The notes beneath the pieces are model-generated. The model was not told where the DNA came from. It worked only from the letters and a program-made list of their open reading frames with translations, and did no database searches. Shown in pieces: positions 2,646 through 24,800 of a DNA stretch of 38,551 nt (within the stretch, counting starts at the first letter, position 1; every line of letters starts with the position of its first letter). A program made the translations under genes and the position numbers. This DNA is from Cytophagales bacterium (GTDB lineage: Bacteria; Bacteroidota; Bacteroidia; Cytophagales; Spirosomataceae), in the NCBI GenBank assembly GCA_031423975.1, contig JANPGQ010000311.1, positions 1 to 38,551 on the forward strand. The letters are read 5' to 3'.

Positions 2646-2720
2646 GGTTTTGATTTGGTGTTAAACAATTATTACCTGTGGTCATTGTTTAGCTGTACGC
2701 AAAGAAAATATCTATTCATA

Positions 2721-3525: not shown

Positions 3526-4206
3526 CTAAAACATATCATCAAAAAGTACCGTAACAAATATACCAATTGACTGATTATAATATTGAAAAGTACGGTCGTC
3601 GGCTACGTTATTCAAGCCTAAACTGTATGAAATGCCTATTTGGGTGAATTTTTCTACTTGTATGCCAATACCCATATTGAAACCGTAGTCTATTCTATTT
3701 AAGCCATTGCCAAAAGTTCTTACCGTATTGCTAAACGTACTGTCTGCCCTGTTTCTTTCACTGAGCCGAACGCCTGAATAGACATTTTTACCCGTGATTC
3801 CTACGCCTAAATACGGCCCTGCCCATACGCATAATTGCGTACCAAAACTGTCACGATTTCCGAAAACATAATTCAAATTTGGACAAATGTCTAAGTAATG
3901 CAATTCAAGCGAATTTTCGGTATAAGTAGAATCCGTAAAATTGTATTTGGACTGAAAACCACGAGGACTGTAATGAATTTCGGGTTGAAAACTTAGGCTT
4001 TTAGACAGTCTATAACTAACGCCAAAACCTAAATCAACCACGGGTTTTAGTTTAATACTATTACCGAAAGGAATATTGTCGCCATAGACATTTACTGCTT
4101 TTACGCCAAACCGAAAAATGGAGCGTTCTTTTTTGAGTTGAGCAAAACAATGAGCGGTTGTAAAGAAAGATAGACAAGCAATTAGGGTTATAATGCGTTT
4201 AGACAT
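3526..4206 (-). CDS. Outer-membrane beta-barrel protein (PorT/OMP_b-brl_2-like porin family)
   Basis: Signal peptide ending CFA/Q. Motifs FRFGVK, SFQPEIHYSPRG, LHYLD, AGPYLG, DYGFNMGIG and YSLGL. C-terminal Phe. Confidence 0.75.
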   Translation of the reverse strand: MSKRIITLIACLSFFTTAHCFAQLKKERSIFRFGVKAVNVYGDNIPFGNSIKLKPVVDLGFGVSYRLSKSLSFQPEIHYSPRGFQSKYNFTDSTYTENSLELHYLDICPNLNYVFGNRDSFGTQLCVWAGPYLGVGITGKNVYSGVRLSERNRADSTFSNTVRTFGNGLNRIDYGFNMGIGIQVEKFTQIGISYSLGLNNVADDRTFQYYNQSIGIFVTVLFDDMF

Positions 4207-5404: not shown

Positions 5405-7837
5405 TTATTTATTAATGCTCTTAGTTTTTACAACTGAATACGGTACACAAACATTTGGTTTACAGCAATCTACGCTAACAAATTCGGCAGGGCAACATCC
5501 TCCTGCGGGACAACTTCCGACTAAGGTAGTAAAGGTATAAGTTCCCACAGAATTTACTCTTAATGTTGATGCCGTTGCACCACTAATTACCGTTCCGTTT
5601 TTATACCATTGAATTCCTTCATAACCCGTTGGAACGGTAATATCATATTCATCACCACTTCCAGAACAGATTTCGATGGGTACATAAAAGCAAGCCGAAG
5701 CATTATCATCTTCCAATATAGGATTGGTGGTGTTACCCGTTGTGTAAGTATTGCCTGGTTTTGAATCTTTATCCACTTGGTCGCAAGTCATTACTTCTGC
5801 AACATTGAAAAAAGTGCCTTGAGCCACAGCCTGAACGGTTATCATCAAATTGATGGTTTGTTGTCCTGCTAAATTTCCAACCGTCCAAATACCCGTAGAT
5901 GAATTATAAGTACCTGTAGAAGTAGCATAAGTTTTAAACAAAACACCTGCTGGCATATAGTCTTTTACACTAACACCCGTTGCTAAATTTGTACTTTGGT
6001 TAGTTAATGAAATGGTATAGGTAATTAAATCACCAATGATAGATTTTTTCTGATTAACCGTTTTTATCAAGGCTAAATCAACTTCTACCTGTGGATTAAC
6101 TATTCCTGTTACCGTGAAAACAGCCCAAGCACTAACGCACTGATTGTTGGTGTTACAAGCCTGATATTGAATAGAGTCTTTACCTACATAACCCGTTGTG
6201 GGCGTATAAGTAAATGCACCATTAGTTGATAAAGTAATACCACCATGGAGTGGTGTTGGTAATGGAGATATTTTCACCGTTAAAGTACCCGCCGGGGTAT
6301 CATTGGCTAATACATTTCCAGAAACTGGGGTATTTACTGGCGTTGAATAAACATCACGTACTGCCACAGGTGCAGTGCTGGTAACGGTGAAAACCGCCCA
6401 AGCTTTTACGCATACATTGTTTACATCGCAAGCCTCATATTGAATAGAATCTTTGCCTACATAACCTGTTGTGGGCGTGTAAGTGAAAGCACCGCTGGTT
6501 GATAAGGTCAAACTGCCATGTAGTGGAGTGGGGAATGGTGATATTTTCACGGTTAAACCTCCGCTTGGTGTATCGTTGTCAAGTACATTTCCAGAAACTG
6601 GCGTGTTGAAAGGCGTTGAATACACATCACGATTTGCCACAGGTTGTACTGGTGGAGGACCCACCGTTGTGAAAACCGCATAAGCCTTTACACATACATT
6701 ATTGCCATTGCAGGCTTCGTATTGAATAGAGTCTTTGCCTACATAGCCCGTTGTAGGAGTATAAGTAAAAGCACCATTGGTCGATAAAGTTAAACTGCCA
6801 TGTAGTGGAGTGGGGAATGGTAAAATTTTCACGGTTAAACCTCCATTTGGTGTATCGTTGGCAAGTACATTTCCAGAAACTGGCGTGTTGAAAGGCGTTG
6901 AATACACATCACGATTAGCTACCGGTGCGGGTCCTGTTACGGTAATAATAATATAGGCTTTATCACAAACACTTCCTGCATCACAGGCTTCGTATTGAAC
7001 GGAGTCTTTACCTACATATCCCGTTGAAGGGGTATAGGTAAATGCTCCCGTTGAAGACATCGAAATACTGCCATGAAGTGGCGTGCCTAATGAGGATATT
7101 TTGACGGTTAAACCCGTTGCTGGAATATCATTGGTGAGAGCATTGCCCGAAACGGCTGTATTAATAGTGGTACTGATATTATCATTAACCGCATCCACAG
7201 TAGGATTAGTACAAAGCGTGTTTAAACAAACGTTATAGCTTTCAAAAACGCCCCCTGCTGGTACAGTTGGGTTACTATAATCGTAAGGATCAGGCGTGAT
7301 TACGATGATTTCGTTCATTCCTGTTACGGGAAAATCCGTATTGGTGTTGTCGGTATGCCATTTAAAATTGACACATCCATCTCCTTTCACAATATCAAAT
7401 TGAATGCAAGCAATGGTGATATAAGCTGTTCCTACTTGTTTAGCACCTGCATTACTGCCTGAATATAAAACATTTAGAGATACCAATCCCATTGTGCCAT
7501 CAGCACTAAGTTTTGACCCCGTTAAGGTTTGAGTTCCGTAGTTGGAATCACTGGCGGGAGCGGCATTCGAGAAATTTTCTTGGCTAATGTTTTTAGGATT
7601 ATTTACAACAGTGGCGTCATAATCAAAACGGAAATTTCCGTCTCCTAATTTGAACGTCGAGTTGGCATCGTGTGCTTTTACCTGTACCTGCAAGACTACT
7701 TTCTTGGTGATACAGTCACTACTTTTTAGTTTGAGTCTAACATCAAACTTTCCATTTGGCGTTGTTTGTGCAATAGACGGCATTGCCCAAAGCAATACCA
7801 TCAGACAAGTTAAAGTGGCGGCTAAAACTTTTCTCAT
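5405..7837 (-). CDS. Secreted 810-aa protein: cohesin-like N-domain, 4 Big_9/cadherin-like Ig repeats, DUF11 domain, Cys-rich C-tail
   Basis: Signal peptide SIA/Q. Repeats of PVA.RD.YSTP.NTPVSGNVL.ND...GAFTYTP.TGYVGKDS.QY.AC. DUF11 pattern VDLALIKTV...GDLITYTI.LTN...ATGVSVKD.MPAG...WTVGNL. Ends CPAGGCCP...CCKPNVCVPYSVVKTKSINK. No type A or type B CTD seen. Confidence 0.85.
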   Translation of the reverse strand: MRKVLAATLTCLMVLLWAMPSIAQTTPNGKFDVRLKLKSSDCITKKVVLQVQVKAHDANSTFKLGDGNFRFDYDATVVNNPKNISQENFSNAAPASDSNYGTQTLTGSKLSADGTMGLVSLNVLYSGSNAGAKQVGTAYITIACIQFDIVKGDGCVNFKWHTDNTNTDFPVTGMNEIIVITPDPYDYSNPTVPAGGVFESYNVCLNTLCTNPTVDAVNDNISTTINTAVSGNALTNDIPATGLTVKISSLGTPLHGSISMSSTGAFTYTPSTGYVGKDSVQYEACDAGSVCDKAYIIITVTGPAPVANRDVYSTPFNTPVSGNVLANDTPNGGLTVKILPFPTPLHGSLTLSTNGAFTYTPTTGYVGKDSIQYEACNGNNVCVKAYAVFTTVGPPPVQPVANRDVYSTPFNTPVSGNVLDNDTPSGGLTVKISPFPTPLHGSLTLSTSGAFTYTPTTGYVGKDSIQYEACDVNNVCVKAWAVFTVTSTAPVAVRDVYSTPVNTPVSGNVLANDTPAGTLTVKISPLPTPLHGGITLSTNGAFTYTPTTGYVGKDSIQYQACNTNNQCVSAWAVFTVTGIVNPQVEVDLALIKTVNQKKSIIGDLITYTISLTNQSTNLATGVSVKDYMPAGVLFKTYATSTGTYNSSTGIWTVGNLAGQQTINLMITVQAVAQGTFFNVAEVMTCDQVDKDSKPGNTYTTGNTTNPILEDDNASACFYVPIEICSGSGDEYDITVPTGYEGIQWYKNGTVISGATASTLRVNSVGTYTFTTLVGSCPAGGCCPAEFVSVDCCKPNVCVPYSVVKTKSINK
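6580..6916. repeat. Near-identical intragenic tandem repeat units (282-nt period)
   Basis: The 55-nt string caagtacatttccagaaactggcgtgttgaaaggcgttgaatacacatcacgatt occurs identically at 6580-6634 and 6862-6916. Confidence 0.85.
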
Positions 7838-7883
7838 GTTTGTATATATTTAATTGAAATTTTTGGTAGTGATTGGTTATTCG

Positions 7884-7954
7884 TTTGCCTTTGTTGGAGT
7901 TTTCTCCAATAAATTGGACGGTAGCTTGTTGGATAAAACTCCAACAAGGGCAAA
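7884..7954. repeat. REP-like inverted doublet (26-bp arms, each itself palindromic)
   Basis: tttgcctttgttggagttttctccaa (7884-7909) versus ttggataaaactccaacaagggcaaa (7929-7954), 2 mismatches. It is flanked by inverted TAACCAA-type heptamers. A related copy lies at 28652-28729. Confidence 0.7.
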
Positions 7955-7997
7955 AAAATAACCCGATAACAAGTAACCAATAACCAATTCCCATTCA

Positions 7998-8912
7998 CTA
8001 ATAATTCACGGTAATGAAACGAGTGAAGTTCTTTCCGTCTGCTCGTTTCACAGCGTAATAATATGTTCCTGGACTTACGGCACGGCTATTATCAAGTCCA
8101 TCTTGATTTGGCTTACCATCCCATTCGTTTTTATAATCGTCTGCTTTGTAAATCACCCTTCCAGAACGGTCAAAAATGGTAATACCCATATTGATATTTT
8201 CAGGATTTTTGATTTCGAATTTATCATTTACTCCATCTCCATCTGGCGAAAACCCCTCTGGAATGAAGAATGATTCGTTGGTTGGCAATTTTGATTCCGC
8301 TGAACAGGTAGATGCTAAATCAATTTTGAGGCTTTCAAAAGTTCCTGTTGCTTTGATATTTTGAAGTTGGAATTCATTATCTCCATTAGCATCTTTGTTT
8401 ATCAAAACTTCGTTCATACCCGTAGCAGGGAAACTCTTTCCCAAGCCTTCTTGCCACTTGATTTCCATGACTGATTTCAAGTCCACAAGGTCGAAACTAA
8501 GGGTTGAGACGGTTAGGTATTGTGTGCTAACCTCAGTAGCACTTTCACCCAAACCACCATAAAAAGTGTTTAAAGAAACGATGCCTTCTTTCATGCGTGC
8601 TGTACTTCCATTCAAATTATGTGAGCCATAATTTTTATCGGAAATTTCACCATGAGATGAGAAAAAGCCTTGCTTTTCGAGGGTTGGATTACTGATAACT
8701 GTGGGATTGTATGCCATTCTGTAATTAGCATCACCCATTTTGAATTTTGATTTTTCATCATGAGCTTTTACTTGTACATCCACTGATAATTTTTTGGAAG
8801 CACAGTCTAATTTCTGGGTGGCGATTCTGACATCGAAAACGCCATTTTGGGCATTCACGGCATGGCTGCCGATGAGCGAAAGCCCTAATATATAAAGATA
8901 TTTTTTGTTCAT
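7998..8912 (-). CDS. 304-aa T9SS substrate: cohesin-like domain fused directly to a type B (gliding motility-associated, CHU_C) CTD
   Basis: Start MNKKYLYILG at 8912, signal peptide VNA/Q. The C-terminus FFIPEGFSPDGDGVNDKFEI...IFDRSGRVIY...YKNEWDG...PGTYYY...FITVNY is the type B CTD pattern. Confidence 0.9.
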   Translation of the reverse strand: MNKKYLYILGLSLIGSHAVNAQNGVFDVRIATQKLDCASKKLSVDVQVKAHDEKSKFKMGDANYRMAYNPTVISNPTLEKQGFFSSHGEISDKNYGSHNLNGSTARMKEGIVSLNTFYGGLGESATEVSTQYLTVSTLSFDLVDLKSVMEIKWQEGLGKSFPATGMNEVLINKDANGDNEFQLQNIKATGTFESLKIDLASTCSAESKLPTNESFFIPEGFSPDGDGVNDKFEIKNPENINMGITIFDRSGRVIYKADDYKNEWDGKPNQDGLDNSRAVSPGTYYYAVKRADGKNFTRFITVNY

Positions 8913-9006
8913 GTCCATTAATTTTTGTGCCTTGTGGCGGTTCGAGAACAAAGTTCATGGTCGGTAAGTATGTTGCAAATACCAAGCCAGTTTTAACACA
9001 GTTCTT

Positions 9007-9066
9007 GGTGAACGGTTTTTCGACTATATTTTTCGCCGTGTACCGTTCACCCTTTACCTTTTACCT
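9007..9066 (-). promoter_or_regulatory. Intergenic hairpin with heptamer repeats just downstream of the 2163-aa gene
   Basis: ggtgaacggt (9007-9016) and accgttcacc (9042-9051) form a perfect 10-bp inverted repeat. The right arm is part of tcgccgt-gtaccgt-tcaccct-ttacctt-ttaccta. Confidence 0.5.
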
Positions 9067-9071
9067 AATTT

Positions 9072-12000
9072 TTAATGCAATACTCCTGAATAACGTCCGC
9101 TATTTTGTTTCCATAAGCTGTTATCCATAAAGTTTGAGTCGGCATCTAAATTGAAATCACTCAATAAATAAATATCAAAACTTCCTGATAAACTCTTCCA
9201 TAGGAGTGAATCTTTGAAATTGATGTCGTAATTATCATTGATAGTAGCTTTTGAACCATCTGCAGCGTACATCACGAACTTAGTACCAACCTGTTTTTCT
9301 CCAAATGATGGAGGGTTTGTTAGCTGATAGCTTTGTTGTGCCGTAAAGTCATACGTAATTTTACCAGCCGATACAGGCACTTTTACGTGCGACATTACCC
9401 CCATGTGATTGCGATGTTCGATAACCACGTAGAATGAACCACTCGGTAAAGTGAAGCATGGATTGACAAAACTAATGTGTCCGTCGCTGTGCAATAAACC
9501 TGCCACACTGAGAGCCTTGCTTGCCTTTGTCGAATCTGTACGAAGCGATACCAAAACCCAATCAACCACCGTAGTAGGATATGCAGTTATGGTTTCTGAC
9601 CCTGTATAACTAAATGGTAATAAATTGTAGGGTTGTCCTCCTGGTGTTGCCACAGCATAATTTCCCACAGGTGTTTGTCCTGGTAATAATCCTCGTTGAT
9701 TCAAAATGGTACTCATCAAACCTGTATTTGAGTCATAAGGTCCTTGAAGAATTACCTTGAAGTCAAACGTAACGCAAGGCTGTTCTAATATAGTAATATA
9801 TGCCGTTGCAGTAGTGCATAAAACTGGCGAACCATTATCACAAACCTTATACGTGAACACATCTGTACCCACAAACGTAGCGTTTGGTGTATAGGTAAAT
9901 GCACCCGTAGTGGCATTGAATACAATCGTTCCGTTGGCAGGGTTGGTCAATTTGGTAAATGCCAATATTTGCCCTGCATCGGGGTCGCTATCGTTCAAGG
10001 CTACTGAGGCTGATACAGATGTGCCTTTGAGCGTAATCTTGTAGTCGTCATTAGCAACTGGTGGATTATTTACTATCCCAACGGTTGCATCTTTTACATT
10101 GATTGTTACTACCGCCGTATCACATTTTGCAGTATTTGAAGCATCACAAACTTTATATTTATAGGTATCAATTCCTACGAATACTGGGTTTGGTGTATAA
10201 GTCATCGTGCCATTTGCATTAGTTACTACTGTACCGTTTAGTAGTGTTCCGATAGCCGTTGGCAAGCCCAAAGTACCTGCTGTATAAGTATCGTTTGCCT
10301 TTACAGAAATAATAACCGCCGTAGCTTTTGGGGTAACAGCATTATCGTCCAATGCCACTGGTAGTGTATTTGCTTGTGGTGTAATGCTGGGATCAATGAT
10401 GGTCAAATATGCCGTAGCATTTGAACACATAATTGGCGAACCATTATCACAAACCTTGTAAGTAAACAAATCACTACCTACGAATCCAGAATTTGGAATA
10501 TAAGTATATGTTCCGTTTGGATTAAAGGTAAGCGTTCCGTTTACTGGGCTTGACGTATTGCTGAAAGTCAAAATCTGTCCTATATTCGGGTCAGAATCAT
10601 TGGTAGCTACTGACGACGTTATGGTTGAATTTTTGTTCAACGTTTTAGCATCGTCCGTTGCTACTGGTGGTTCGTTTTTCACTACATTCATTGACTCATT
10701 TACTGAAACTGTTACGGTTGCAGTACTACATAACGAAGGTGTTCCCGAATCACAAACCTGATACGTGAAGGTATCGTCGCCAGTTGTTCCTGGGGTTGGC
10801 GTATAAGTAATCGTTCCATCAGGATTCACTACTACCGTTCCTTTGGTTGGCGGTGTGGTGATAGTCGGATTCTTCAAAGGCGTACCTTCTGGGTCGGCAT
10901 CATTGGCTAATACATTGATAGTTAAGGGCTTGTCTTTCGGCGTACTCGTATTGTCAGGATTGGCTAATGGTGGCAAATTTGTACCAGAAGTCAATGGCGT
11001 TGTGATGGTAATGGTTACCGTAGCGGTATCACACAATGAAGGCGTTCCGTTATCACAAACCTTGTATTTGAAAGTATCATTACCCGTAGCCGTTGGATTT
11101 GGCGTATAGGTAAATGTTCCGTCTGGCAAAATTGTAACTGTTCCTTTGGTTGGTGTTCCACCCATAATTGGACCCGAAGCTACTAAAGGATTGCCCTCTG
11201 GGTCGGTATCATTGGTCAAAACATTACCTGTTATTGGTGTACCTTTTGGGGTTACGGCAATGTCATTCGTAGCAATTGGAGCATCATTTTTAGGTAATAC
11301 TGTTATTGGAATGATAACATTGGTACAAATTCCTGAAGCATCACAAACTTTTACACAAACCGTATCTTTTCCCGAAAAATTAGGAAGTGGCGTGTAGGTA
11401 ATACAAACCTGATGTGGCGTTGTACTATTATTTACCGTAACCGTAGTAGCACCGTGTTTCGGAGCAGCACATAATGAAACTGTATGCGTTTCGTTGGCAT
11501 CGGGGTCATTTATTGGCAAACAAACCGTTACGGTACTATCTTCAGGTACAATGATTGGCGTTGGCACAATAACTGGAGGGTCTGGTACAGGCGTAACTTT
11601 CACAGGTACTTTGATGGTAGTACAATTTCCATAAGCATCACACACCTTCACACATACCGAATCAGTACCATTAAAATTAGGATTGGGCGTGTAAGTAGTA
11701 CAAACCTGATGTGGTGTTAAAGTATTATTTACCGTGTAAGTAACCGTTCCGTTTAATGCACCACAAGGTGTAACCGTATGAGTATCAACTGCATCAGCAT
11801 CCACAATTGGCATACAGAATGTGATTGGTGTCCCGTCTTCTGGCATCGTTGGTGGCGTAACTGGTGGTGTAATTACTGGTGGTGCTGAATTGATATTCGT
11901 TACCGTCAAAATCACCGTTGCGTTGCTACATAATACTGGCGTTCCGTTATCACAAGTCTTATACGTGAACATATCCGTACCCACATAATTGGTAGCAGGT

Positions 12001-15000
12001 GTATGGGTATATGCTCCTGTTGTTGGATTGAAACCCGTGATTGTTCCGTGCGAAGGAGTTGATAATTGCGTGTAAGTCAATACCTGTCCTGCATTTGGGT
12101 CAGTATCATTTGTGGCTACAAAACCATTCACAGGTACATTTTTAGGTGTTTGCTTACTATCGTCCACAGCATCAGGAGGAAGGTTTACTGCCCCAATTGG
12201 TTTTGGAGTAAGTTCAACCGTTACCGTGGCAGTATCACACTTTGAAGGTATGCCTGTATCACAGATAATATATTTGAAAGTATCCGTTCCCGTAGCCGTT
12301 GGACTGGTTGGCGTGTACGTTACCGTTCCATCAGGATTTACTACTACCGTTCCCTTCGTTGGACCAAAAGCTGGTACAAGCGTTGGAATGGTCAATGGCG
12401 TACCGTCTGGGTCAATGTCATTCGCTTTTACATTAATCACTAATGGCGTTCCTGCTGGTGTAATTACGTTATCATTTACAGCCAAAGGAGGTCTATTTAC
12501 CCCTGGCGTTGAAGTAGGGTCAAATACTTCAATCGCTACCGTTGCCGTATCACAAAGCGTTGGCGTTCCATTATCACAAACACGATATTTGAATACATCC
12601 GTACCCACAAATGTAGGGTTTGGCGTATAGGTATATCCACCTGTTGGCGTTACAGTCAATGTTCCATTAGCTGGTGACTTTACTGGTGTTGTTGATACGG
12701 TCAGTGTTTGTCCTGTGTCAGGGTCTGTATCATTTGTCAAGACGTTTCCAGCTACTGGTATGGCTTTGGGCGTAATGTTTACATCATTGATAGCCACTGG
12801 TTTATCGTTTACAGCCGTTACCGTGACAGGAATTTTTACATCAGTACAAAGCCCCGAAGCATCACATACTTTTACGCAAATGGTATCTACACCATTGAAA
12901 TTAGTAAAAGGAGTATAGGTTACGCAAAGGGTATGCGTTACATTATTTACCGTTGTAGTTGCCGTTCCGTTTTTAGGCGTTGCACAAGGCGTAAGCGTGT
13001 GCATATCACCTACATCTGGGTCAGTTATTGGCATACAAACCGTTTTAGAAGCAGAATCTTCTGGCATCGTAAGCAGTACTGAAATTACGACTGGTGGGTC
13101 TGGTAAGGGCGTAACTGTAATGGGAATAGTTACGTTAATACATTTTCCATAAGAATCACAAATTGTCAAACATACTGAATCTTTACCTGCATAATTTGCC
13201 GTTGGTTTATAATTCAAACAAACTTGATGCGTAGTGTTATTTACAGTTGGAGTGGCTGTTCCATTTTTTGGAACTCCACAAACTGTAACCGTATGCGTAT
13301 CATTTTTATCGGGGTCTGAAATTGGCAAACATAATGTACTAATTGGCGAATCTTCCGCAACCATCTGAGGTGTTGGCGTAACAACTGGTGGGTCTGGCAC
13401 GGGCGAAACCACAACTGGAATTAATACGTTGGTACATAATCCCCCTGCATCACAAACTCTTACACAAATAGTATCCTGACCGTTGAAATTAGGGGCAGGG
13501 CTATAAGTAACACAAACTTCATGCGTAGTATTATTCACAATAGCTGTTGCATTTGAACCCGCTTTTGGCGCAACACATAAACCAGCAGTATGCGTGTCTG
13601 TTCCGTCTGGATCTGTAATTGGTAAACAAATTGTCTTAGCCGCAGAGTCTTCGGGCATAGTAATTTGCTTTGGTAAAACCACAGGAGGGTCATTCACAGG
13701 CGTAACTTTTACGGGTATTTTCACCGTTGTACAAGCTCCATTATTATCACACACTTTCACACAAATCGAATCCGTACCATTAAAATTTGGATTAGGCGTA
13801 TAGCTCAAACAAACCTGTTTGGTGGTAGGATTCGTACTGGCGATAGTAGTTGTTCCGTTGTTTGTCCCACAAATACTTGCGGTGTGCGTATCGGTAGCGT
13901 CAGCATCTGAATAGTTGAAACAAATCGTCAGAGGCGTAGCTGGGTCTTCGGGAGTTGTGGGTGTAACGGCTGGTGGAATAATCACTGGTGCGGTATTAGA
14001 CGGTGCTGTTACTGTCAAATATACCGTAGCGGTATCACACAAAACTGGCGTTCCATTATCACATACTTTATATATGAAAGCATCTGGACCTGTATAGCCC
14101 GTTGTGGGCGTATAGGTATAACCGCCCGTTGGGGTTATAACTACTGTACCATGTGCAGGAGCGGATATTGGTGCGGTGGTGTATGCCAAAATTTGCCCAG
14201 CATTGGGATCAGTATCGTTACCAAAAAATATTCCTGTCAAAGGAGTATTTTTCAGCGTAGTACCTGCATCATCACCTGCAATCGGTTTGTCATTGGCTGT
14301 GATAGGATTATTATCTACCACAACATCAATGGTGGCAGTGGTGGTTGCACACGCTTTTGGCGTAGCATTATCACATACCTGATACGTGAAAACATCTTGC
14401 CCGCTAAATCCTGAATTTGGCGTGTAGGTGTATGTTCCGTTTGGTAAAATAGTTACCGTTCCATTGGTTGGAGGGATTACTGGCGTAGTAGTTGCCGTAA
14501 GCGTTTGCCCTGCATTGGGGTCAAAATCATTACTCAATAAATTGCCAGTAACGGGCATTGAAACATTGGTTTGGGTAACATCGGGTTGAGCAACTGGTGG
14601 TGCATTTACCCCTGGTAAAGATGGTAGTGCCAAGATAGTAATTGTTACCAAGGCAGTATCACACTTTTGTGGAATTACATTATCACAAATTTTATATTTG
14701 AAAATATCTGTCCCCGAATAGCCCGTTGTAGGCGTATAGATATAAGTTCCATTAGCATTTAATACTACTGCACCATGCGTTGGGCTGATAATTGGCGTAG
14801 TGGTAACAATCAATCCAGAGCCAATATCGTTAGTGAGAACTTGTCCAGAAACGGCTATATTTAAGTTAGTAGTATTGATGTCATTTACTGCCAAAATGGG
14901 TGAACAATAGGTACTCATACAAGAATTAGCATTGCCAAAATAACCACTTGCCTTTACGTCTGCTTGTTTATACTCGAAAGAAGGGTCTGTTATAATACCG

Positions 15001-15563
15001 TAAACTTCATTCATACCCGTAACTGGCGATGTTTTGTCATCGTTCCAAGTAAGGTCAAAACAGTCATTTCCATTCACTACGTTAAACTTTATACAAGCTA
15101 CAGTTGCCCATTTAGGAGTAACTAATTTAGCTCCTTGGTTTGAACCAGTATAAAATGTATTCAGCGATACAATTCCTTCGGTAGGACCTTCGCCCGAACC
15201 ATTTAAGTTCTCGAAACCATAATTGGTATCACTCGAAGGAGCTTTTGCTGAATAATTTTCTTGACTCACCAAACTCTGTGCAAAGGTTGGCGAAACACCC
15301 AAAAGCCTCAACTGAGTGGTTTTGAACCGAAAACGATAGTTGGCATCTCCCATCAGGAAGGTGTCGGCAATGGAGGTAGCCCGAACTTGTACGGCAATGG
15401 TGAGCGTTCTGGGTGAGACAGAACAGTCAGTACTTTTGACTGTAAATCTCACATCGAATTTTCCCGCTGCTACGGGATGCATACCACTCTGTGCTCGGGC
15501 GGTACTGATTATTCCCAAAAAGAGAAAAACAGCAGAGAACAGCGTTAATAGCAGTTTTTTCAT
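9072..15563 (-). CDS. 2163-aa secreted adhesin/stalk protein: cohesin-like N-domain, ~17 Big_9/cadherin-like repeats, C-terminal dockerin-like domain
   Basis: Signal peptide ARA/Q. Manual count of 17 repeats (P.A..D...T...ND.DP...G.YTYTP...G.D.F.YKVCD.G.P..CD.ATV). The C-terminal ~235 aa run KVILQGPY...VVDWVLVSLR...EHRNHMGVMS...DINFKDSLLW...DFNLDADSNFMDNSLW. Confidence 0.88.
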   Translation of the reverse strand: MKKLLLTLFSAVFLFLGIISTARAQSGMHPVAAGKFDVRFTVKSTDCSVSPRTLTIAVQVRATSIADTFLMGDANYRFRFKTTQLRLLGVSPTFAQSLVSQENYSAKAPSSDTNYGFENLNGSGEGPTEGIVSLNTFYTGSNQGAKLVTPKWATVACIKFNVVNGNDCFDLTWNDDKTSPVTGMNEVYGIITDPSFEYKQADVKASGYFGNANSCMSTYCSPILAVNDINTTNLNIAVSGQVLTNDIGSGLIVTTTPIISPTHGAVVLNANGTYIYTPTTGYSGTDIFKYKICDNVIPQKCDTALVTITILALPSLPGVNAPPVAQPDVTQTNVSMPVTGNLLSNDFDPNAGQTLTATTTPVIPPTNGTVTILPNGTYTYTPNSGFSGQDVFTYQVCDNATPKACATTTATIDVVVDNNPITANDKPIAGDDAGTTLKNTPLTGIFFGNDTDPNAGQILAYTTAPISAPAHGTVVITPTGGYTYTPTTGYTGPDAFIYKVCDNGTPVLCDTATVYLTVTAPSNTAPVIIPPAVTPTTPEDPATPLTICFNYSDADATDTHTASICGTNNGTTTIASTNPTTKQVCLSYTPNPNFNGTDSICVKVCDNNGACTTVKIPVKVTPVNDPPVVLPKQITMPEDSAAKTICLPITDPDGTDTHTAGLCVAPKAGSNATAIVNNTTHEVCVTYSPAPNFNGQDTICVRVCDAGGLCTNVLIPVVVSPVPDPPVVTPTPQMVAEDSPISTLCLPISDPDKNDTHTVTVCGVPKNGTATPTVNNTTHQVCLNYKPTANYAGKDSVCLTICDSYGKCINVTIPITVTPLPDPPVVISVLLTMPEDSASKTVCMPITDPDVGDMHTLTPCATPKNGTATTTVNNVTHTLCVTYTPFTNFNGVDTICVKVCDASGLCTDVKIPVTVTAVNDKPVAINDVNITPKAIPVAGNVLTNDTDPDTGQTLTVSTTPVKSPANGTLTVTPTGGYTYTPNPTFVGTDVFKYRVCDNGTPTLCDTATVAIEVFDPTSTPGVNRPPLAVNDNVITPAGTPLVINVKANDIDPDGTPLTIPTLVPAFGPTKGTVVVNPDGTVTYTPTSPTATGTDTFKYIICDTGIPSKCDTATVTVELTPKPIGAVNLPPDAVDDSKQTPKNVPVNGFVATNDTDPNAGQVLTYTQLSTPSHGTITGFNPTTGAYTHTPATNYVGTDMFTYKTCDNGTPVLCSNATVILTVTNINSAPPVITPPVTPPTMPEDGTPITFCMPIVDADAVDTHTVTPCGALNGTVTYTVNNTLTPHQVCTTYTPNPNFNGTDSVCVKVCDAYGNCTTIKVPVKVTPVPDPPVIVPTPIIVPEDSTVTVCLPINDPDANETHTVSLCAAPKHGATTVTVNNSTTPHQVCITYTPLPNFSGKDTVCVKVCDASGICTNVIIPITVLPKNDAPIATNDIAVTPKGTPITGNVLTNDTDPEGNPLVASGPIMGGTPTKGTVTILPDGTFTYTPNPTATGNDTFKYKVCDNGTPSLCDTATVTITITTPLTSGTNLPPLANPDNTSTPKDKPLTINVLANDADPEGTPLKNPTITTPPTKGTVVVNPDGTITYTPTPGTTGDDTFTYQVCDSGTPSLCSTATVTVSVNESMNVVKNEPPVATDDAKTLNKNSTITSSVATNDSDPNIGQILTFSNTSSPVNGTLTFNPNGTYTYIPNSGFVGSDLFTYKVCDNGSPIMCSNATAYLTIIDPSITPQANTLPVALDDNAVTPKATAVIISVKANDTYTAGTLGLPTAIGTLLNGTVVTNANGTMTYTPNPVFVGIDTYKYKVCDASNTAKCDTAVVTINVKDATVGIVNNPPVANDDYKITLKGTSVSASVALNDSDPDAGQILAFTKLTNPANGTIVFNATTGAFTYTPNATFVGTDVFTYKVCDNGSPVLCTTATAYITILEQPCVTFDFKVILQGPYDSNTGLMSTILNQRGLLPGQTPVGNYAVATPGGQPYNLLPFSYTGSETITAYPTTVVDWVLVSLRTDSTKASKALSVAGLLHSDGHISFVNPCFTLPSGSFYVVIEHRNHMGVMSHVKVPVSAGKITYDFTAQQSYQLTNPPSFGEKQVGTKFVMYAADGSKATINDNYDINFKDSLLWKSLSGSFDIYLLSDFNLDADSNFMDNSLWKQNSGRYSGVLH

Positions 15564-15643
15564 GCGAAGAATTGTTTAGGATGTACTAATTTATTAAAAT
15601 ATCCATCTACACCTGGCAGGGCGGAGGAGTGGACATACGTTTC

Positions 15644-15832
15644 AATTGATAATTGACAATTGATAGTTGACAATTGATAGTTGACAATTAACTGTGAATG
15701 ATTATTACGATATAAAATGTTTTAGGGATACTTAGGAAGGGAATGTTTTAGTTTCGGGTACTTAAATGTGTGGATTAATATAATTGATAATTGACAATTG
15801 CATACTTAGTATCAATTGTCAATTATCAACTA
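15644..15832. repeat. AATTGAY heptamer array with an inverted copy forming a hairpin
   Basis: Seven tandem heptamers at 15644-15692 (aattgat aattgac aattgat agttgac aattgat agttgac aattaac). A 17-bp perfect inverted repeat: ttgataattgacaattg (15784-15800) and caattgtcaattatcaa (15813-15829). Confidence 0.85.
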
Positions 15833-15834
15833 TA

Positions 15835-18800
15835 TCAATGTGCCACTCCTGAGAAGCGACCATTATTTACTTTCCAAAGCGTATTATCTGAATTATTTAC
15901 ATCCGCATCGAAGTTATAATCTCCTGATAAATAGCGGTCGAAAATACCTGATTGTAACTTCCACAAATTCGAGTCGGCAGCATTGATATCGAAGTTATCA
16001 TTCTGCAATGCCTTCTTATGGTCGGCTGCATACATGACATATTTACCCGCTTTCACTTTCTGACCATACGATGGAGGGTTTGTAAGTGCATAAGAATCAT
16101 TGGTGGTAAAGTCATAGGTAAGCGTACCCGTTGTTACCGTTATTTTCTTATCACTCATTACACCCATGTGGTTACGATGTTCAACCAAAACATAATATGA
16201 ACCGTTGGCAATGGTGAAACATGGATTAACAAACGTTACGTTACCGTCAGCGTGCAGTAAACCTGCGGCTCTGAATACTGGCGTAGTGGTTAATGAATCG
16301 GTTCTTAATGAAATCAATACCCAATCCACTATATCAGTGGCATATCCACCCAATGGCATGGCTTCTGTTCCTGCATAATTCCAAGGAGTTCCCGAATAAG
16401 GCTGACCGTTTGGCGTAGGCGTTGCGGTAATGCCAATTGGAGTTTGTCCTGGTAATAATCCTCTCACATTCAAGAAGTTATTCATCAATCCAGAAACTGT
16501 ATTTAATGGTCCTTCTAATAATACTTTCAGATTAAAGTTTACACAAACACTCAAAATTGGGTCTTTTACAGAGAGATATACCGTAGCAGTATCACATAAA
16601 CTTGGTGTACCATTATCACATACTTTGTAGAGGAATTTATCTGTACCTACGAATGTTGCGTTTGGCGTATAGGCAAACGTTCCATCTGGATTAAAGCTCA
16701 CCGTTCCATTGGCAGCGAGTGTTAATAACGAATACGATAAGGTCTGTCCTGCATTCGGGTCATTATCATTCAAACTTGCACTTTTGTTGATTCCTACACC
16801 TTTGTTGGTGGTGTAAGCATCGTCATTAGCTACTGGTTTGATGTTGCCACCTCCGCTATAATCAGGCGTTACTTTTATTGTTACCGTGGTGGTATCGCAA
16901 AGTGCAGGTGTTTGATTATCACATACTTTATATTTGAATACATCCGTACCCACAAATCCTGTGGCTGGGGTATAAATATAAGTTCCGTTGGTGTTCAAGA
17001 CTGCCGTTCCATTCGTTGGATTCGTCAGTTTTGTGAAAGCTAACGTTTGTCCTAAGTCTGGGTCGAAATCATTTGAAGCCACCGTGCCACTTACTGGAAT
17101 ATTTACCAAAGTCTGATTGACATCGTGTATTGCCGTTGGTTTGTTATTAATTGGCGATACCGTTGGTGCATCTTGGACGTATAAATAAACGTAAGCTATA
17201 TCACATTCGGCAGGTACTTTATTATTACACATTTGATATTGAGCCGAGTCTTTTCCTATAAATCCAGTAGTTGATGTGTAAGAATACGTTCCGTTCGGAT
17301 TTAACGTTAAAGTTCCGTGCGTAGCTGGTGCGAGTAATGAAACCGTTACTGGCAAACCTTTCTTATCGTCATTGGTCAATACATCACCCGTTACCGTAGT
17401 ATTTTTCGGAACGATGTTAATGTCGTCAAATGCTACTGGTGAACTTACCGTTGGAATTGGTGATGGCAACACACTTACGTAAACCGTTGCAGTATCACAT
17501 AAGCTCGGCGTTCCGTTATCACAGGCTTTGTAGGTAAATTTATCAGGTCCTGTATATGCAGTTGTTGGAATATACGTGTATGAACCATCTGCATTTACCG
17601 TTACCGTTCCGTGAACTGGATTCGATACCTTCATGAATGAGAGCGTTTGTCCAGTATTTAGGTCGCTATCATTTGGTGCTACTGTGGCAGTTTTTGCAGT
17701 ATTGATATTAGTAACAATAGCATCATCCTGAGCATTTGGAGCATCATTTCCTCCCACTGGACTCAGTTTAGGCGTTACGTCAATTGTTACACTGGCAGTA
17801 TCACAAAGCACTGGCGAACCTGTATCACAAACCTTATAAGTAAATTTATCTTTACCGATAAATCCACTATTTGGTGTGTAAGTAAATGTTCCGTCTGGAT
17901 TAAATACTAATGTACCATTGACTGGATTTGTCAATTTAGTAGCCGTTAAAATTCCTCCTTCTGGATCGGTATCATTATTGGTTACTTTACCCGAAACTGG
18001 TATATTCACCAAGGTCTGAGCCACATCTGCACTGGCAATTGGTTTATCATTTGCGGTATTTGGCAATGGTGCAACGTTAATATATAACCACGCTTTACTA
18101 CATTCTGCGGGTACTTCGTTATTACAGATTTGGTACTGAACCGAATCTTTACCCACAAATCCAGTGGTTGGAATATATCCATACGTTCCATTAGGACTGA
18201 TGGTTAATGAACCGTGCTTGGCAGTGGTCAATTGCGTAACCACCACTGGCAAACCTTTCTTATCATCATTGGTCAATACATCTCCCGTTACCGTTGTGTT
18301 TATCAACGTATTGTTAATATCATTGACTGCCAAAGGCTGCGTTGATGATGGTGATACGGTCAGATAAATCGTTGCGGTATCACATTTCACTGGTGTGCCT
18401 GCATCACAAACTTTGTAAGTAACGGTATTGCCACCTATTGGTTTACCCGTCAATGGGTCAATGGCTGGCGTGTAGGTTACATTACCCAAAGCATCAATCG
18501 TTACGTTTGGATTACCACCTAACTTGGTGAATGCCAATGGCGTACCTTCTGGGTCTTTATCGTTTCCACTTACATTGTACGTTACTGGTTTACCCTCAAT
18601 TCCCAAAATGGCATCATCAATTGCCACTGGTGGCTGATTGACGGCTGGATTTGGTGTTACAGGCTCAACCGTGATAATCACTTTTGCGGTATCACACAAT
18701 ACTGGCGTTCCGTTATCGCATACTTTGTACTTGAATACATCCGTACCCGTAAATCCTCCGTTTGGCGTGTAAGTGAAAGTACCATTCGGGTTCATCGTTG

Positions 18801-21800
18801 CCGTTCCGTTGGTTGGATTCGTCAATGTGGTGAATGTGAGCGTTTGACCACTATCTGGGTCAAAATCGTTGATACTGGCATTACCACTTACAGGTGTACC
18901 TGCGTTGGTTTGTGTTACGTCATTGAATGCCACTGGTTTATCATTCGCACCCGTTGCTGGGTCAGGAATAACCTTGAATGTTACCCAAGCCGAATCACAT
19001 TCTACTGGCACGGCGTTGTTACAAATCTTATATTTTACCGAATCCACACCCACAAAATTAGGGTTTGGCGTATAGGTATATGAGCCGTCAGGATTCAAGG
19101 CAAATACTCCATTTTTAGCAGGCGTAATTACCGAAGGCGTAACTGGCAAACCTTTCTTATCATCATTGGTCAAAACATTTCCTGTTACTGGCGTATTCAC
19201 ACGTACCACAGCAATATCGTCTTGTGCATCTGGCTGTGTCATAGATGGCTGGGTTCTTAATTCAACTGTTGCGGTATCACACAATACTGGCGAGCCGTTA
19301 TCACACACTTTGTATTTCACCGTGTAAGTTGCTCCTGGCAATGCAGGGTCAATTCCTGGTGTCCAAACCAAAGTACCCGTTGGCGACAATGTTACCATTC
19401 CTTTGGTAGGTTGATTCAACAAAGTATAAGTCAAAGTCTGTCCTGCGTTAGGGTCACGGTCATTTCCTATTACCGAGGTTGTAACAGTTTGTCCACCCGT
19501 CGAAACTACTACATCGTCTCCTGCATCAGGTTTCAAATTAACCGTTAGCGGAAGCGTTGGGTCTAATGGTACTATTTTGATTGTTACCGTAGTAGTATCA
19601 CAAAGACTCGGCGAGCCATTATCACAAATTTTATACTTGAAGACATCCGTACCTACAAAAGTAGGGTTTGGTGTGTAGGTATAAGTTCCGTTGGCATTTA
19701 CCGTAACCGTTCCATTAGCAGGGTCAGAAATCTTACTTGTGGTGAGGGTCTGTCCTAAATCTGGGTCATAGTCATTGCCCAAAACTGAACTCGAAACAGG
19801 CGAACCTTGCTGTGTAACCACATTGTCTGGCATTGCCACAGGTTTGTCATTGCCAGCCGTTGGATATGGAATGGTATTGATATACAACCAAGCCGAATCA
19901 CATTGTACTGGAATTAGGGCATTACAAACCTTGTATTTCACCGAATCACGACCTACATAATGCGGTACGCCGCCCGTAGGATTTGGCGTGTAGGTATAGC
20001 TTCCATTTGGATTAAATACAATCGTTCCATTTTTAGGATTCGTCAATTGTGAAGCCATCAGTGGATTGCCCTTAGAATCATCATTGGTCAAAACATTTCC
20101 TTTTACTGGCGTATTAGGCGAAGTAATGGCGATGTCGTTTTGAGCCACGGGATTCGTGATTTTATCATCCGTTTCTATCGTGATAATCACCGTTGCCGAA
20201 TCACACAATACGGGTGAACCGTTATCACAAACTTTGTATTTGAACGAATCATTACCCACAAAACCAGCAGTTGGTGTGAAGGTATAAGTACCCGTTGTTG
20301 GATTAAATCCTGTGATTGTTCCGTGTGCAGGATTACTTAATTGACTGAATACCAAGGTCTGACCAGCATCTGGGGCGGTGTCGTTTAGGGCAACCGTTCC
20401 TGATTTTGGCGTATTGATTTTCGTTAATAAAGCATCGTCCTGAGCAGCTGGTTTACTGTTTGCATTCAATGGCGTAATGACTGGCGTTACGTCAATTTCA
20501 ACTTTTGCCGAATCGCATTTTACTGGATTCCCGTTATCGCAGGCTTTGTAAGTGAAGTAATCTTTTCCTACAAAACCAACAGTTGGCGTATAAATATAGC
20601 TTCCGTCAGGATTCAACGTTACCGTTCCATGTGCAGGGTCGGTCAATTTCGTTGCCACAAGAACATCACCCAAATCAGGGTCCACATCATTGCCCAACAC
20701 ATTGCCTTTTACGGGAACACCTGCTTCGGTTTTTGCCACGTCATTATTGGCAATTGGCTTATCATTTTGAGGCGATGGCACATCACTTACATTGAAGTAA
20801 ATGTAGGCAGTATCACATCTCACCATTGGGATTTCGTTTACGCAAATCACGTATTTCACCGAATCTTTACCCACATAACCCGTAGTTGGTGTATAGATAA
20901 ACGAACCGTCTGGATTGATAGCAATGATACCATGTTTCGGAGCAGTTCCCGATGGTAAACCTACCACCAGAGGATTGCCTTTTGAATCATCATTGGTCAA
21001 AACATTACCCCCAACAGGCGTGTTTTTAATCGTCATGGCAATATCATTCACCGCATCTGGCTTGTTAGCATCAGGTTGTTTTGGCGGTAAAACTGTCAAA
21101 TAAACCGTAGCCGTATCGCACATTACAGGCGTTCCGTTATCACAAATCTTGTACGTGAACGAATCAGTACCAATAAAAGTAGCATTAGGTGCATAGCTGA
21201 ATGTTCCGTTGGCATTCATGATTACCGTTCCGTTGGCAGGATTCGTTAATTTGCTGAATGCAAGCGGTTCGCCGCCCGACGTATTACCATTCGGGTCGCT
21301 ATCGTTTTGAGCGGAATTACCGTTTACTCCTACGCCTTTATAAGTTACATAGGCATCGTCATTAGCAACAGGTTTGTCGTTTGAATTAGCACTTTTTGGC
21401 TTCACTTCAATTGTTACTGTGGCTATATCACACTTCACTGGCGTTCCGTTATCGCATACTTTGTATTTAAACATATCAATACCCGCAAAGTCCGTAACTG
21501 GAGTGTAGGTATAAGTTCCGTCTGGATTGAATACCAAGATACCGTCATTAGGGTCTGTTAAGTTGGTATAAGTCAATATCTGAGCAATATCTGGGTCGAA
21601 ATCATTATTGCCCACACTACCATTTACTGGCTTATTCAGGTACGTTACCGATACATCATTACTTGCCACAGGCGGATTATTATCAACCATTGAAGGTGGA
21701 TAAGGTAATACGTTCAGATATATCCATGCGGTATCACATAAACTGACAGTATTGCACAGAATGTATTTTGTCGAATCTTTACCGACAAAATTGGCTTTTG

Positions 21801-24800
21801 GTACATAGGTATAATTGCCGTTTGGTAATAAGGTTATCGTTCCGTTTTTTGGAGGAGTAGCCGTTACCAAACTGGTTGTAACTACCTGTCCTGCCTTATC
21901 ATCATTCGTTAAAACATTTCCAGAAACTGGGGTATTTTTAAACGTCAAGTTAATGTCATTAATCGCATTTGGGTTATTGGTAACTGGTGGTATTATTGTT
22001 AAAAATACCGTTGCAGTATCACATAAACTCGGCGTACCATTATCGCATACTTTATACAAGAATTTATCTGTACCTGAATAACCAATAGTTGGGGTATATA
22101 CAAATTGACCCGTTGTTGGATTAATCGTTACCGTACCGTGTGCGGGGGCAGTTACTGGCGTATTTGAATACGTCAATGTTTGTCCTACATTCGGGTCAGA
22201 ATCATTTGGTTTCAATTGATCTGTTACCGCAGTATTCATGGCTGTGATGGCAGCATCATCTTGGGCATTTGGTTTGTCATTGGCAAGTTCGTTGATGTCG
22301 GGACTAACTGTGATGCCTACGCAAGTTGAGTCGCAAGCATTAGATGGATCGCAGATTTTATAACAGAATACATCATTGCCCACAAAATTTGCATTTGGCG
22401 TATAAATAAATGTTCCATCTGGATTAAATACTATCGTTCCATTGACAGGGCTTTTCGTTAAAGTAGCCGTTAAAGGGTCTCCATCTGGTTCGAGGTCATT
22501 GTTTGTAACCTTACCCGAAACAGGAACATTCTTCAAAGTCTGAACCACATCACTATTAGCAATGGGTGGGTTGTTTCCGTTCACAAATGTGCCAGGCAAG
22601 ATGGTGACAATTATCCAAGCCGAATCACATCTTGATGCTGCATTACAAATCACATATTGAGCCGAGTCTTTGCCCACAAAACCAGTTGCTGGGGTGTAAG
22701 TATAAACTCCATTCGTTGCAACTGTCAAGTTTCCATAAATTGGATTTTTTACTAAAATCGGATTCGTAGTAAATGGCAAACCGTTTCCAGTATCATTCGT
22801 AGCGGTATTTCCTGAAACTGGTTTGTTTTTTAAAGTTACGTTAATATCGTTCTGAGCGTCTGGCGTTGGTGCTAACACTACTACATAAACGGTTGCGGTA
22901 TCACACAAAGTTGGACTACCATTATCACAAACCTTATACTTAAACTGGTCTGTTCCGAAGAATCCCGTAGCAGGGGTATAAGTATAATTTCCAGCCGCCG
23001 TAATAGTTACCGTTCCATGTACAGGAGGCGTAGTTGGCGTGGTAGTGTAAGTCAAAGTATTACCATTCGGGTCGGTATCATTAGACTTTAATATACCCGA
23101 AACTGGAATATTAAGATTTGTTAAAGCTGCATCGTCTTGTGCATTTGGACGGTCGTTCGTAGTGCCATTATAGTCTGGCGATACCGTAATTACTACCGTA
23201 GCCGTATCGCAGGCACCCTTTGTATCACAAACTTTATACTGAAATTTGTCTCTACCTGTGAAATTAGGGTCAGGCGTATAAGTATAAGTTCCGTCTGTGT
23301 TTAGCGTAACTGTTCCATTATCAGGCTGTACAATCACCGAAGCGGATAACACATCACCGTCTGGGTCAATATCGTTATTGGTAACTTTGCCCGATACGGG
23401 TATGTTTTTCAAAGTCTGCCCTGCATCGTCGCTGGCAACAGGAGCATTATTGATAAAACGAATTGGGTCAATTACATTGATGGTCAGCCAAGAAGTATCA
23501 CAAAGCGAAGCCGTATTACAAATCACATATTGAACAGAATCCTTACCCACAAAATCAATTGTAGGCGTGTAGGTATATGAACCGTTGGCATTGAGGGTAA
23601 TAGCTCCGTGCAATGGGTCCACCAAAGCATACGGTGTTAAAGTAAAGGCTAAACCTCCACCGTTATCATTGGTCAAAATATTACCCGAAATAGGGTTGTT
23701 TTTTGTTGTAATATTCACATCAAGTTGAGCATCAGGCACGGGAGGTACAACTACGATGTATACCGTTGCGGTATCACATAAACCTGCGGCATCACAAGCC
23801 TTGTATTTTAATTGGTCAGTTCCAAAATAGCCCAAAGTTGGGGTATAAGTGAAAGCTCCATTGACAGCCAAAGCAAAAATTCCGTGGGTAGTTGGCGATG
23901 TCATCGTAGTAGTTAAAACATTACCGTTCGGGTCAGAATCGTTTAAACGAACATTACCCGTAACGGGAACACTCAAGGTAGTACGATACGAATCGTCTTG
24001 AGCGAATGGAGCATCATTGGTGGTTATCCCATTAGCATCTGGTCTGATATAAACTACTGCTTTTGCTGTTGTACACTGGTTCAAATCATCACAAACTTGA
24101 TATTCAAAAGTATCTGTTCCGATATATCCTGGGTTTGACGTGTAAGTATATGAGCCATTGGCATTGATACTCACCGTTCCGTGACTTGGATTACTGACGG
24201 GGATAAGCGTATATTTCAACGCCCCATTTTCAGGGTCAAAATCGTTGCTCGCCAAATTACCCGAAACAGGGATATTCATATTGGTTTGAGCCACATCGTT
24301 TTGAGCAATCGGTGGTAGGTTTGTGGTAATGCTTGGTTTATAAACGTTCAAGTATAAAGTGGCGGTAGTACACAAATTATCTACCGAACAGATTTTATAA
24401 TTAATCGAATCTTTACCCACAAAATCAGTAGATGGCGTGTAAGTATATGTTCCGTTTGGATTGAAAACTATCGTTCCATGATTTGGCGTTGTTGTCGCTG
24501 TAAAGACATCCGTTGTGGTAGTTTTTGTATCATTAGTAGCCACAGAGCTACCTACTGGCACATTTACCAAGGTTACGTTGATGTCATTAATAGCCAATGG
24601 AACGGGTTTAATCGTTACAAGCACCTTAATAGTTGTACAGGTTGCAGTAACCGCATCGCATAGGGTTACACAAACAGAATCTGTACCCACAAAGCCAGGT
24701 TTTGGTTTGTAGGTTATACAAAGTTGTCCGCTTTCAATCGTGGCTAATGCCGTTGCTCCCGCCACCTTTGGATAACCTGGGCAAGAAGCAGCCGTAGCAC

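Follow-up and report, generated by a model that had tools for sequence, protein, structure and literature searches.

In a stretch of 38,551 nucleotides from a Cytophagales bacterium (Spirosomataceae; assembly GCA_031423975.1, contig JANPGQ010000311.1, forward strand, positions 1-38,551; here called the window), successive genes on the minus strand encode two large proteins that end in a domain of about 235 residues, denoted Y, and three proteins that begin with another domain, denoted X. Each of the two Y genes is followed by a gene whose product begins with X. Y is predicted to fold as a type II-like X-module-dockerin and X as a cohesin, and it appears very probable from the models that the two domains have these folds and bind each other. 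From X-Y docking a head-to-tail adhesin chain made from successive genes would therefore follow. We regard it as probable that a giant of 4323 residues docks in this way on an adaptor of 2163 residues, and the adaptor on an X-bearing anchor with a type B C-terminal domain (CTD) of a type IX secretion system (T9SS). That the chain keeps strictly to gene order we hold at slightly better than even. The genes and domains concerned are as follows.

15835-28806, minus strand: giant of 4323 residues with an N-terminal ~870 residues without known family, 28 Big_9 repeats (tandem-95) and a C-terminal Y (open reading frame (ORF) and family scans)
15838-16554, minus strand: Y of the giant (P0002), positions 10/11 AA and NS (58% identity to the folded copy)
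about 16033-16545, minus strand: X-module-like part of the giant's Y (by homology)
about 15838-16032, minus strand: dockerin-like part of the giant's Y (by homology)
9072-15563, minus strand: 2163-residue protein with a signal-peptide-like start, X1 head, 17 Big_9 repeats and a C-terminal Y (ORF and family scans)
14898-15476, minus strand: X1 (P0003), cohesin-like head of the 2163-residue protein (fold by homology to X3)
9075-9785, minus strand: Y of the 2163-residue protein (P0001), positions 10/11 FK and FM (predicted structure)
about 9270-9776, minus strand: predicted X-module in this Y (predicted structure)
about 9075-9269, minus strand: dockerin-like loop-helix pair in this Y (predicted structure)
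7998-8951, minus strand: 317-residue protein with X3 and a T9SS type B CTD (family scans)
8286-8852, minus strand: X3 (P0005), cohesin-like head of the 317-residue protein, the copy that was folded and docked (predicted structure)
about 8010-8264, minus strand: T9SS type B CTD (TIGR04131/CHU_C) of the 317-residue protein (family scans)
5405-7837, minus strand: 810-residue protein with X2 head, 4 Big_9 repeats, DUF11 and a CVP-CTERM putative sorting tail (family scans)
7202-7765, minus strand: X2 head of the 810-residue protein (profile match)
about 5420-5470, minus strand: CVP-CTERM (NF058574) tail of the 810-residue protein (family scan)
4327-5298, minus strand: PorP/SprF-family T9SS shuttle (TIGR03519, PF11751; family scans)

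The genome is about 95% complete and holds exactly two Y and three X copies, all inside the window. In two DNA runs of the same study a single 18.3-kb contig per run, from a near-identical strain, covers positions 6883-20000 unbroken, and the gene order is therefore not an assembly artefact. The closest named relatives are Arcicella records, with Y identities of 70-85%.

The Y tail is predicted to be an X-module-dockerin

A preliminary description of this DNA had proposed a paralogous Y domain at two C-termini. Every motif that it quoted is found in both translations, and the two copies are identical at 137/236 positions (58%, E 2e-104). A plus-strand reading of both Y stretches was rejected, with stop codons all along. 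Both copies end in two loop-helix repeats. Repeat 2 fits the dockerin loop, as had been stated, and keeps all five ligand positions: D210, N212, D214, N218 and D221 (positions 1, 3, 5, 9 and 12) are present in 69, 66, 68, 59 and 69 of 69 relatives, respectively. In repeat 1, D176, N189 and D192 are kept in 65, 68 and 69 of the 69, and a 5-residue insertion shifts positions 3 and 5. The insertion had been noticed before and is real: in six relatives (L046-49, L051, L055) the loop runs through without a break, and their alignment shows a gap of 5 residues at this point. From these residues, Y would be a calcium-binding domain.

Searches of Pfam and NCBIfam, and single-sequence searches of the PDB, with the window copies of Y gave nothing relevant. 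Searched as a profile against the PDB, Y gave 14 matches (E ≤ 10), of which 13 were dockerin-bearing chains, all weak (best E 0.074). The structure model of Y from the 2163-residue protein, built with 104 sequences, reached a pLDDT (predicted local distance difference test) of 95.5 and a pTM (predicted template modelling score) of 0.92. It consists of a beta module up to residue 172 followed by two loop-helix units, with helices 190-199 and 219-228 placed after Asp/Asn loops. When this model was searched with Foldseek, type II X-module-dockerin chains filled ranks 1-10 without exception, at E 2.6e-5 to 1.9e-3, and rank 11 had an E of 0.036. A VIA search placed 3kcp_A (Z 10.6, root-mean-square deviation (rmsd) 3.7) and 5g5d_B (Z 10.2) on top, with 151 residues aligned at rmsd 3.7-3.9, and lone dockerins next, at Z 5.7 and 5.1; the model also aligns to the dockerins 2y3n, 2ozn_B and 2vn5_B.

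These models suggest that the first ~170 residues of Y form an Ig-like X-module of the type II dockerin kind, packed on the dockerin. The earlier term "dockerin-like" was therefore apt and even understated, since Y as a whole is predicted to be an X-module-dockerin and X a cohesin. The structure prediction proposed earlier as a check, which might have shown a beta-sandwich T9SS CTD, gave loop-helix-loop-helix for the last 65 residues. Neither TIGR04183 nor TIGR04131 (T9SS CTD types A and B) matched Y, and the CTD candidate was rejected.

Y matches 8,001 clusters (50% identity) at E ≤ 0.001 and is found in 107/201 genomes of the family and in at least 56/401 genomes of the phylum, with no more than 7 candidates scored per genome; it thus represents a large family overlooked by Pfam and NCBIfam in this clade. 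It lies within 5 residues of the C-terminus in all 120 matches listed, of 503 found, one of which (P0080) looks truncated. The cargo of these 120 is varied, including Big_9, GEVED, peptidase M43, SprB and others, and 32 of them also carry X, N-terminally in 23 cases and directly before Y in 9.

The X heads are predicted to be cohesins

The X3 model (54 sequences, pLDDT 91.8) likewise led to the cohesin-dockerin field. Type II cohesins stood on top of the Foldseek results (E 1.9e-6), and the first 19 rows of the VIA results were cohesins, from Z 13.4 (rmsd 2.6, 141 aligned) to 9.5, with the next row at 9.2. In the latter, types I and II were mixed, the best type II rows (Z 12.0) lying among or just under type I rows. 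X is thus predicted to fold as a jelly-roll cohesin. In a set of solved complexes (4u3s, 5k39, 2b59, 5m0y), the structure searches lead X to one chain and Y to the other. A sequence search of X against the PDB gave no match, and the Pfam Cohesin family matched 3/25 aligned X members weakly (best E 6e-4). The predicted face has a core of G-D-x-N, S-x-N and P-x-x-G-M-N that is conserved in X1, X2 and X3; in close relatives these heads form three separate supported clades (99, 99 and 100 in a quick tree).

Other arrangements of X were seen. X stands directly before Y in one chain at L187, L189 and L193 and in P0065, P0073, P0086, P0090 and P0091; the predicted binding face is degenerate in three checked loci of this layout, which recalls the cohesin-X-dockerin end of CipA. 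In some relatives DUF11 and a CVP tail are preceded by two or three X domains in tandem, a scaffoldin-like layout; three tandem X domains and a CVP-CTERM end occur in P0130, P0133, P0134, P0136-P0138 and P0140. No mention of CVP-CTERM was found in the literature searched.

A modelled X3-Y complex and a candidate specificity position

Of the six possible X-Y pairs we modelled one, X3 with Y of the 2163-residue protein, together with two calcium ions. The complex scored 0.91, 0.90 and 0.91, and three controls scored 0.00; the pass mark is reached by 116/157 solved and 2/215 mismatched pairs. The runs agreed in at least 98% of contacts, with a partner pLDDT of at least 94. The model supports X as a predicted cohesin with Y as its partner, and their binding would depend on calcium. 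At the heart of the predicted interface lie N218-F219-M220 of repeat 2 (positions 9-11), the same positions as Asn146-Leu147-Phe148 of repeat 2, which dominate CipB binding according to the accessible text of PMC5141474. F190 of repeat 1 is absent from the predicted interface list but may still make contact.

The preliminary description had correctly given the residues at loop positions 10/11 as AA/NS in the giant and FK/FM in the 2163-residue protein, and had suggested distinct partner preferences. We collected 75 unique pairs of Y with the X of the next gene and left out the 6 with an uninterrupted loop. In the remaining 69 pairs, residues Y219 and X145 were Phe/Gly in 43 cases, small/non-Gly in 18 and small/Gly in 8, all giant-type, and Phe never faced a non-Gly residue. 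Among 47,040 column pairs, corrected mutual information puts this one at rank 9. From the sequences, position 10 of repeat 2 therefore looks like a real specificity determinant, in line with the earlier suggestion. The proposed preferences themselves are neither shown nor excluded: Gly145, the partner residue of Phe at position 10, is kept in all three X domains of the window. Residue covariation as proof of the interface was rejected, a single contact being high and the block not enriched.

Linkage of Y and X across genomes

We called a Y match strong at E ≤ 4e-49, which gave 74 matches in 201 genomes of the family. X begins within 1 kb downstream of Y in 55 of these 74, and in 34/34 of the top ones. 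Among genomes with a strong Y, X is present in 46/47; a further 12 genomes have X but lack a strong Y. Across the phylum, 28 Y loci were examined, and the next ORF was scanned in 24: 15 had a T9SS type A tail (14 above the cut-off), 5 had no family and 4 were unrelated. The heads of 20 of these next ORFs, compared as a profile, match X with 96% probability. At L150 and L151 the run is longer, with four Y-head links that are not alike in sequence class.

Several further observations concern the partners of Y. Y tails of a second class end in QQLP; the gene after them encodes a head of a second family, in many cases with a T9SS type A tail, and long head...Y runs result (L045, L050, L052-L054, L056-L058, L060-L063, L065-L070). 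Members of this head family are homologous to each other (99.5%), and no relation to X or to cohesins was detected by hhalign (probability <6%; in the PDB only T9SS tails match). At L150/L151, a 1520-residue hybrid joins the QQLP class to the class of the window. At L032, L033, L035, L037 and L040-L043, a conserved signal-peptide protein of ~645 residues with no N-terminal X match begins within 50 nt after the Y gene; it is possibly a different partner for Y. Saprospiraceae loci L202-L222, and L081-L149, have varied Y cargo with Gly at position 10, mostly without adjacent X, as expected if such cargo docks in trans on a scaffold encoded elsewhere.

A proposed surface chain and its alternatives

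We propose the following chain. All proteins of the run likely enter the periplasm by Sec. By analogy to the type B cargo described in the available text of PMC12618676, the T9SS would then export the 317-residue protein with its PorP/SprF-family shuttle, the likely cognate of its type B CTD; SprA is encoded in the genome. The cohesin X3 of the exported protein would grip the tail Y of the 2163-residue protein through the second loop-helix, and the X1 head of the latter would grip the giant's Y. The 45 Big_9 repeats and the heads in the chain would hold the N-terminal domain of the giant at a long distance from the cell. The giant would thus be the distal (tip) adhesin, the 2163-residue protein an adaptor or shaft, the 317-residue protein the surface anchor and the CVP-tailed 810-residue X2 protein a second anchor or scaffold. 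The giant-to-X1 link, the surface location and the adhesion are put forward conditionally, from domain order and homology. T9SS CTD families matched neither the giant nor the 2163-residue protein; our best guess is that Y proteins without a known T9SS tail leave the cell bound to a CTD-bearing X partner.

A number of results weigh against this chain. Pfam Cohesin (PF00963) matches none of X1, X2 and X3, EF-hand families match neither window copy of Y, and the HMMER check against Dockerin_1 (PF00404) suggested earlier succeeded only among relatives: no match at E ≤ 0.5 for the window copies, one weak match among 15 family-level relatives (E 0.059), and 13/28 phylum-wide relatives at E ≤ 0.1, with 3/28 above the cut-off. 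The pass mark for the complex score comes from a calibration made without the alignments used here and without ligand. The passing of X3-Y may show likeness only, because similar type II complexes have been solved, and close cousins also pass. The interface block as a whole has no covariation enrichment (p 0.14), and a tree-corrected test of Y219/X145, with 5 and 4 changes, left only two supported pairs that are independent, each changing as expected (p 0.5; underpowered). The linkage counts overstate the support because kin genomes are not independent. In 19 of the 74 strong Y matches there is no adjacent X; inspection of 14 of these 19 loci found none with X next and 8 with the different ~645-residue protein. 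In 10 loci, moreover, the run opens with the X...Y gene, which leaves the X of its product without a Y upstream, and the likeness of X1 to X3, 16/24 predicted interface residues in common against a baseline of 13.0 ± 2.4, argues against strict orthogonality.

The last two points also bear on a fibre that polymerises by itself, in which the tail of the 2163-residue protein would bind both the X3 anchor and the X1 of its own copies, giving a non-covalent pilus capped at its tip by the giant, a protein with a plug and without a socket. We consider such a fibre unlikely. In its favour, X1 and X3 are identical at those 16 of 24 interface positions and at only 51/157 elsewhere, and in six related loci the figure is 16-18/24 (baseline from n=1,988 pairs, 95th percentile 16.65). 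X1 keeps Gly145, which suits Phe219, and the giant upstream has Asn there, the giant-type pairs being the sole 8 exceptions of 69; because X1, X2 and X3 all keep this glycine, self-polymerisation could occur. The ten loci with the X...Y gene in first place fit such a fibre, as do G202, in which one Y and two X were found, and G204 and G201, each with one strong Y and two X. However, in the 8 first-gene loci with a comparable anchor, head and anchor agree at 13-17/24 interface positions and at 41-55% elsewhere, with no excess, and the first-gene genomes are of unstated completeness, most having more or distant Y copies. X1 and X3 also differ consistently at 84/86 and 162-165, the two window Y copies are identical at 10/19 interface positions and unlike at 9/19, and runs of the L150 type have a different class at every link. 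A general Bacteroidota version, a non-covalent pilus of cohesin-dockerin pairs on a T9SS-anchored cohesin whose tail-less subunits are carried through the translocon on a CTD partner, is in our view similarly doubtful.

Quite improbable is a loose scaffold, in which both Y would bind any of X1-X3 with graded affinity and the anchors X3 and X2 would display either large protein in a parallel or branched manner, like cellulosomes, with partners not set by gene order. The face core common to the three X would allow this, and clostridial type II dockerins bound every type II cohesin tested, through two faces of different preference (PMC5141474, in the text accessible); tandem-X relatives and the many Saprospiraceae cargoes without adjacent X point the same way. 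The tight Y-then-X adjacency, the Phe/Gly pairing with the next gene and the three stable X clades suggest paired evolution instead, and X2 has only 12/24 interface residues in common with X1, and likewise with X3. Last, Y could be a relic or repurposed X-dockerin, a calcium-stabilised cap or an unrecognised secretion signal that binds no X, and the linkage would then reflect co-export. Y does occupy the T9SS CTD position on proteins without a CTD, its length is near that of a full type B signal (150-235 residues in the available part of PMC12618676), and its repeat 1 is interrupted. This we find very hard to reconcile with the separate fold searches, which assign Y to one half and X to the other half of common solved complexes, with the contrast between X3-Y and its controls, and with the lack of any TIGR04131/TIGR04183 match on Y. 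The head-to-tail chain from giant to anchor is the reading we prefer.

Comparison with known cohesin-dockerin systems

Y and X are probably distant homologues of the type II X-dockerin/cohesin anchor. Our clostridial comparison set consisted of CipA/CipB of C. thermocellum and ScaA of Acetivibrio cellulolyticus (PDB 2b59, 5k39, 5g5d, 4u3s; accessible text of PMC5141474). As in the clostridial type II X-dockerins, Y is C-terminal, has an X-module and two F-hand repeats and carries a hydrophobic residue at position 10; repeat-2 positions 9-11 are central in the predicted interface, to which the X-module gives a small contact, and the partner X is a predicted jelly-roll cohesin on an anchoring protein. 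In contrast to them, Y has an identity of only 9-13%, an X-module of ~170 rather than 98 residues with a long irregular insert at 31-72, and the 5-residue insertion in loop 1. The host here is Gram-negative, the cargo is Big_9 repeats and not a cellulase scaffold, the tails of the anchors are T9SS type B or CVP-CTERM, and the 2163-residue protein has a socket and a plug at opposite ends. The locus is no cellulosome: a scan of six large or linked proteins found no catalytic or cellulose-binding family, only Big_9, DUF11 and CHU_C, and the genome has two Y. For this reason, and because the window copies miss the Pfam cut-offs, we did not file Y and X under Dockerin, Cohesin or cellulosome.

The principle of an X-dockerin on a cohesin is not new, and in 2026 a comparable pair of genes was modelled in Chlorobium. 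In Chlorobium chlorochromatii, Cag_2038 has 18 bacterial immunoglobulin (Ig) repeats and a C-terminal dockerin, and the product of the next gene, Cag_2037, has a type II cohesin at its N-terminus and Ig repeats (bioRxiv 10.64898/2026.03.19.712371, as far as its available text goes). A dockerin-tailed repeat protein thus precedes a cohesin-headed one in both cases, and binding was modelled in both. The Chlorobium pair comprises two genes, its cohesin partner is an RTX protein assigned to type I secretion, and its modules were found by standard annotation, whereas the present runs reach as many as four links, are anchored by T9SS type B/PorP or CVP proteins and consist of modules missed by Pfam. 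The X-Y linked multi-gene run on T9SS type B/CVP anchors therefore differs, as a variant, from the known clostridial and Chlorobium pairs.

Dockerin tails and a cohesin partner with a sorting domain also occur outside Clostridia in Ca. Stygibacter (Cloacimonadota), for which secreted proteins with dockerin tails, and a scaffold of tandem cohesins that ends in a sorting domain, were inferred from genomes only (PMC8542988); there the cargo is enzymes, on a single scaffold with carbohydrate-binding modules, and the portion of the text at hand does not describe head-to-tail adaptors. T9SS type B cargo pairs with a cognate PorP/SprF shuttle, as SprB does with SprF (PMC12618676, available text). Likewise the 317-residue protein has TIGR04131 and a porP/sprF gene in the same run; unlike SprB, the CTD sits on a small adaptor and not on the giant adhesin, and the 810-residue gene lies between the 317-residue gene and porP/sprF. 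Two soil Cytophagales lack dockerin or scaffoldin proteins according to the accessible part of PMC6247017. A search of openly accessible literature found no description of the Y family in Spirosomataceae or Saprospiraceae. Non-cellulosomal cohesins and dockerins were reportedly treated by Peer et al. in 2009, who may list Bacteroidota cases.

The window adds to these systems a complete multi-link run with two anchors and a candidate Phe/Gly determinant. If the docking is true, it provides a surface-display mechanism for many Bacteroidota proteins seemingly without a secretion tail, and the question of how CTD-less proteins exit a T9SS cell becomes testable with small domains. X-Y pairs would then also be a source of new, possibly orthogonal, cohesin-dockerin parts. 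If the pilus and piggyback reading were true, it would mean a new principle of fibre assembly and a new T9SS export route, for thousands of protein clusters.

Other features of the run and its flanks

The run is transcribed, all on the minus strand, in the order 885-residue protein, giant, 2163-residue protein, 317-residue protein, 810-residue protein, PorP/SprF and a small beta-barrel. Its two outer genes are:

28901-31558, minus strand: 885-residue protein without X or Y, with an N-terminal region common with the giant (profile comparison)
3526-4206, minus strand: 226-residue outer-membrane beta-barrel (PF13568), last gene of the run (family scan)

A signal-peptide-like stretch ending before Gln, the rule by which these starts are read, opens every protein of the run as judged by eye. 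The position of the giant's start codon is uncertain (28614-28806, minus strand), as Met11 and Met65 of the ORF both open such a stretch. A profile search for an X head hidden on the giant or on the 885-residue protein gave no match. The 885-residue protein and the giant have their N-terminal ~600 residues in common, DxDxDG repeats included (649 columns at 34%, and a 55% block). This protein is without X, Y or T9SS tail and ends in a short Cys-Val-Pro-like tail, as in L058, L063, L069 and L070, which is possibly a CVP-CTERM relative.

Promoter and terminator scans of the window stayed at chance level (50 vs 42.7 and 11 vs 12.2, respectively). Between the genes of the giant and the 2163-residue protein, at 15640-15830, lie AT-rich short repeats; one 17-mer occurs 12 times on 10 contigs, and in a related strain 29 bases are missing within this interval. 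The flanks (356-3389 and 32194-37762) appear to encode a magnesium-chelatase-like ATPase, a TetR-like regulator, a fatty acid hydroxylase, HemE, a KdsC-like phosphatase and a zinc metalloprotease, which we take to be ordinary genes. Family scans also identified a lamin-tail protein at 33285-34490, whose T9SS type A tail is weak.

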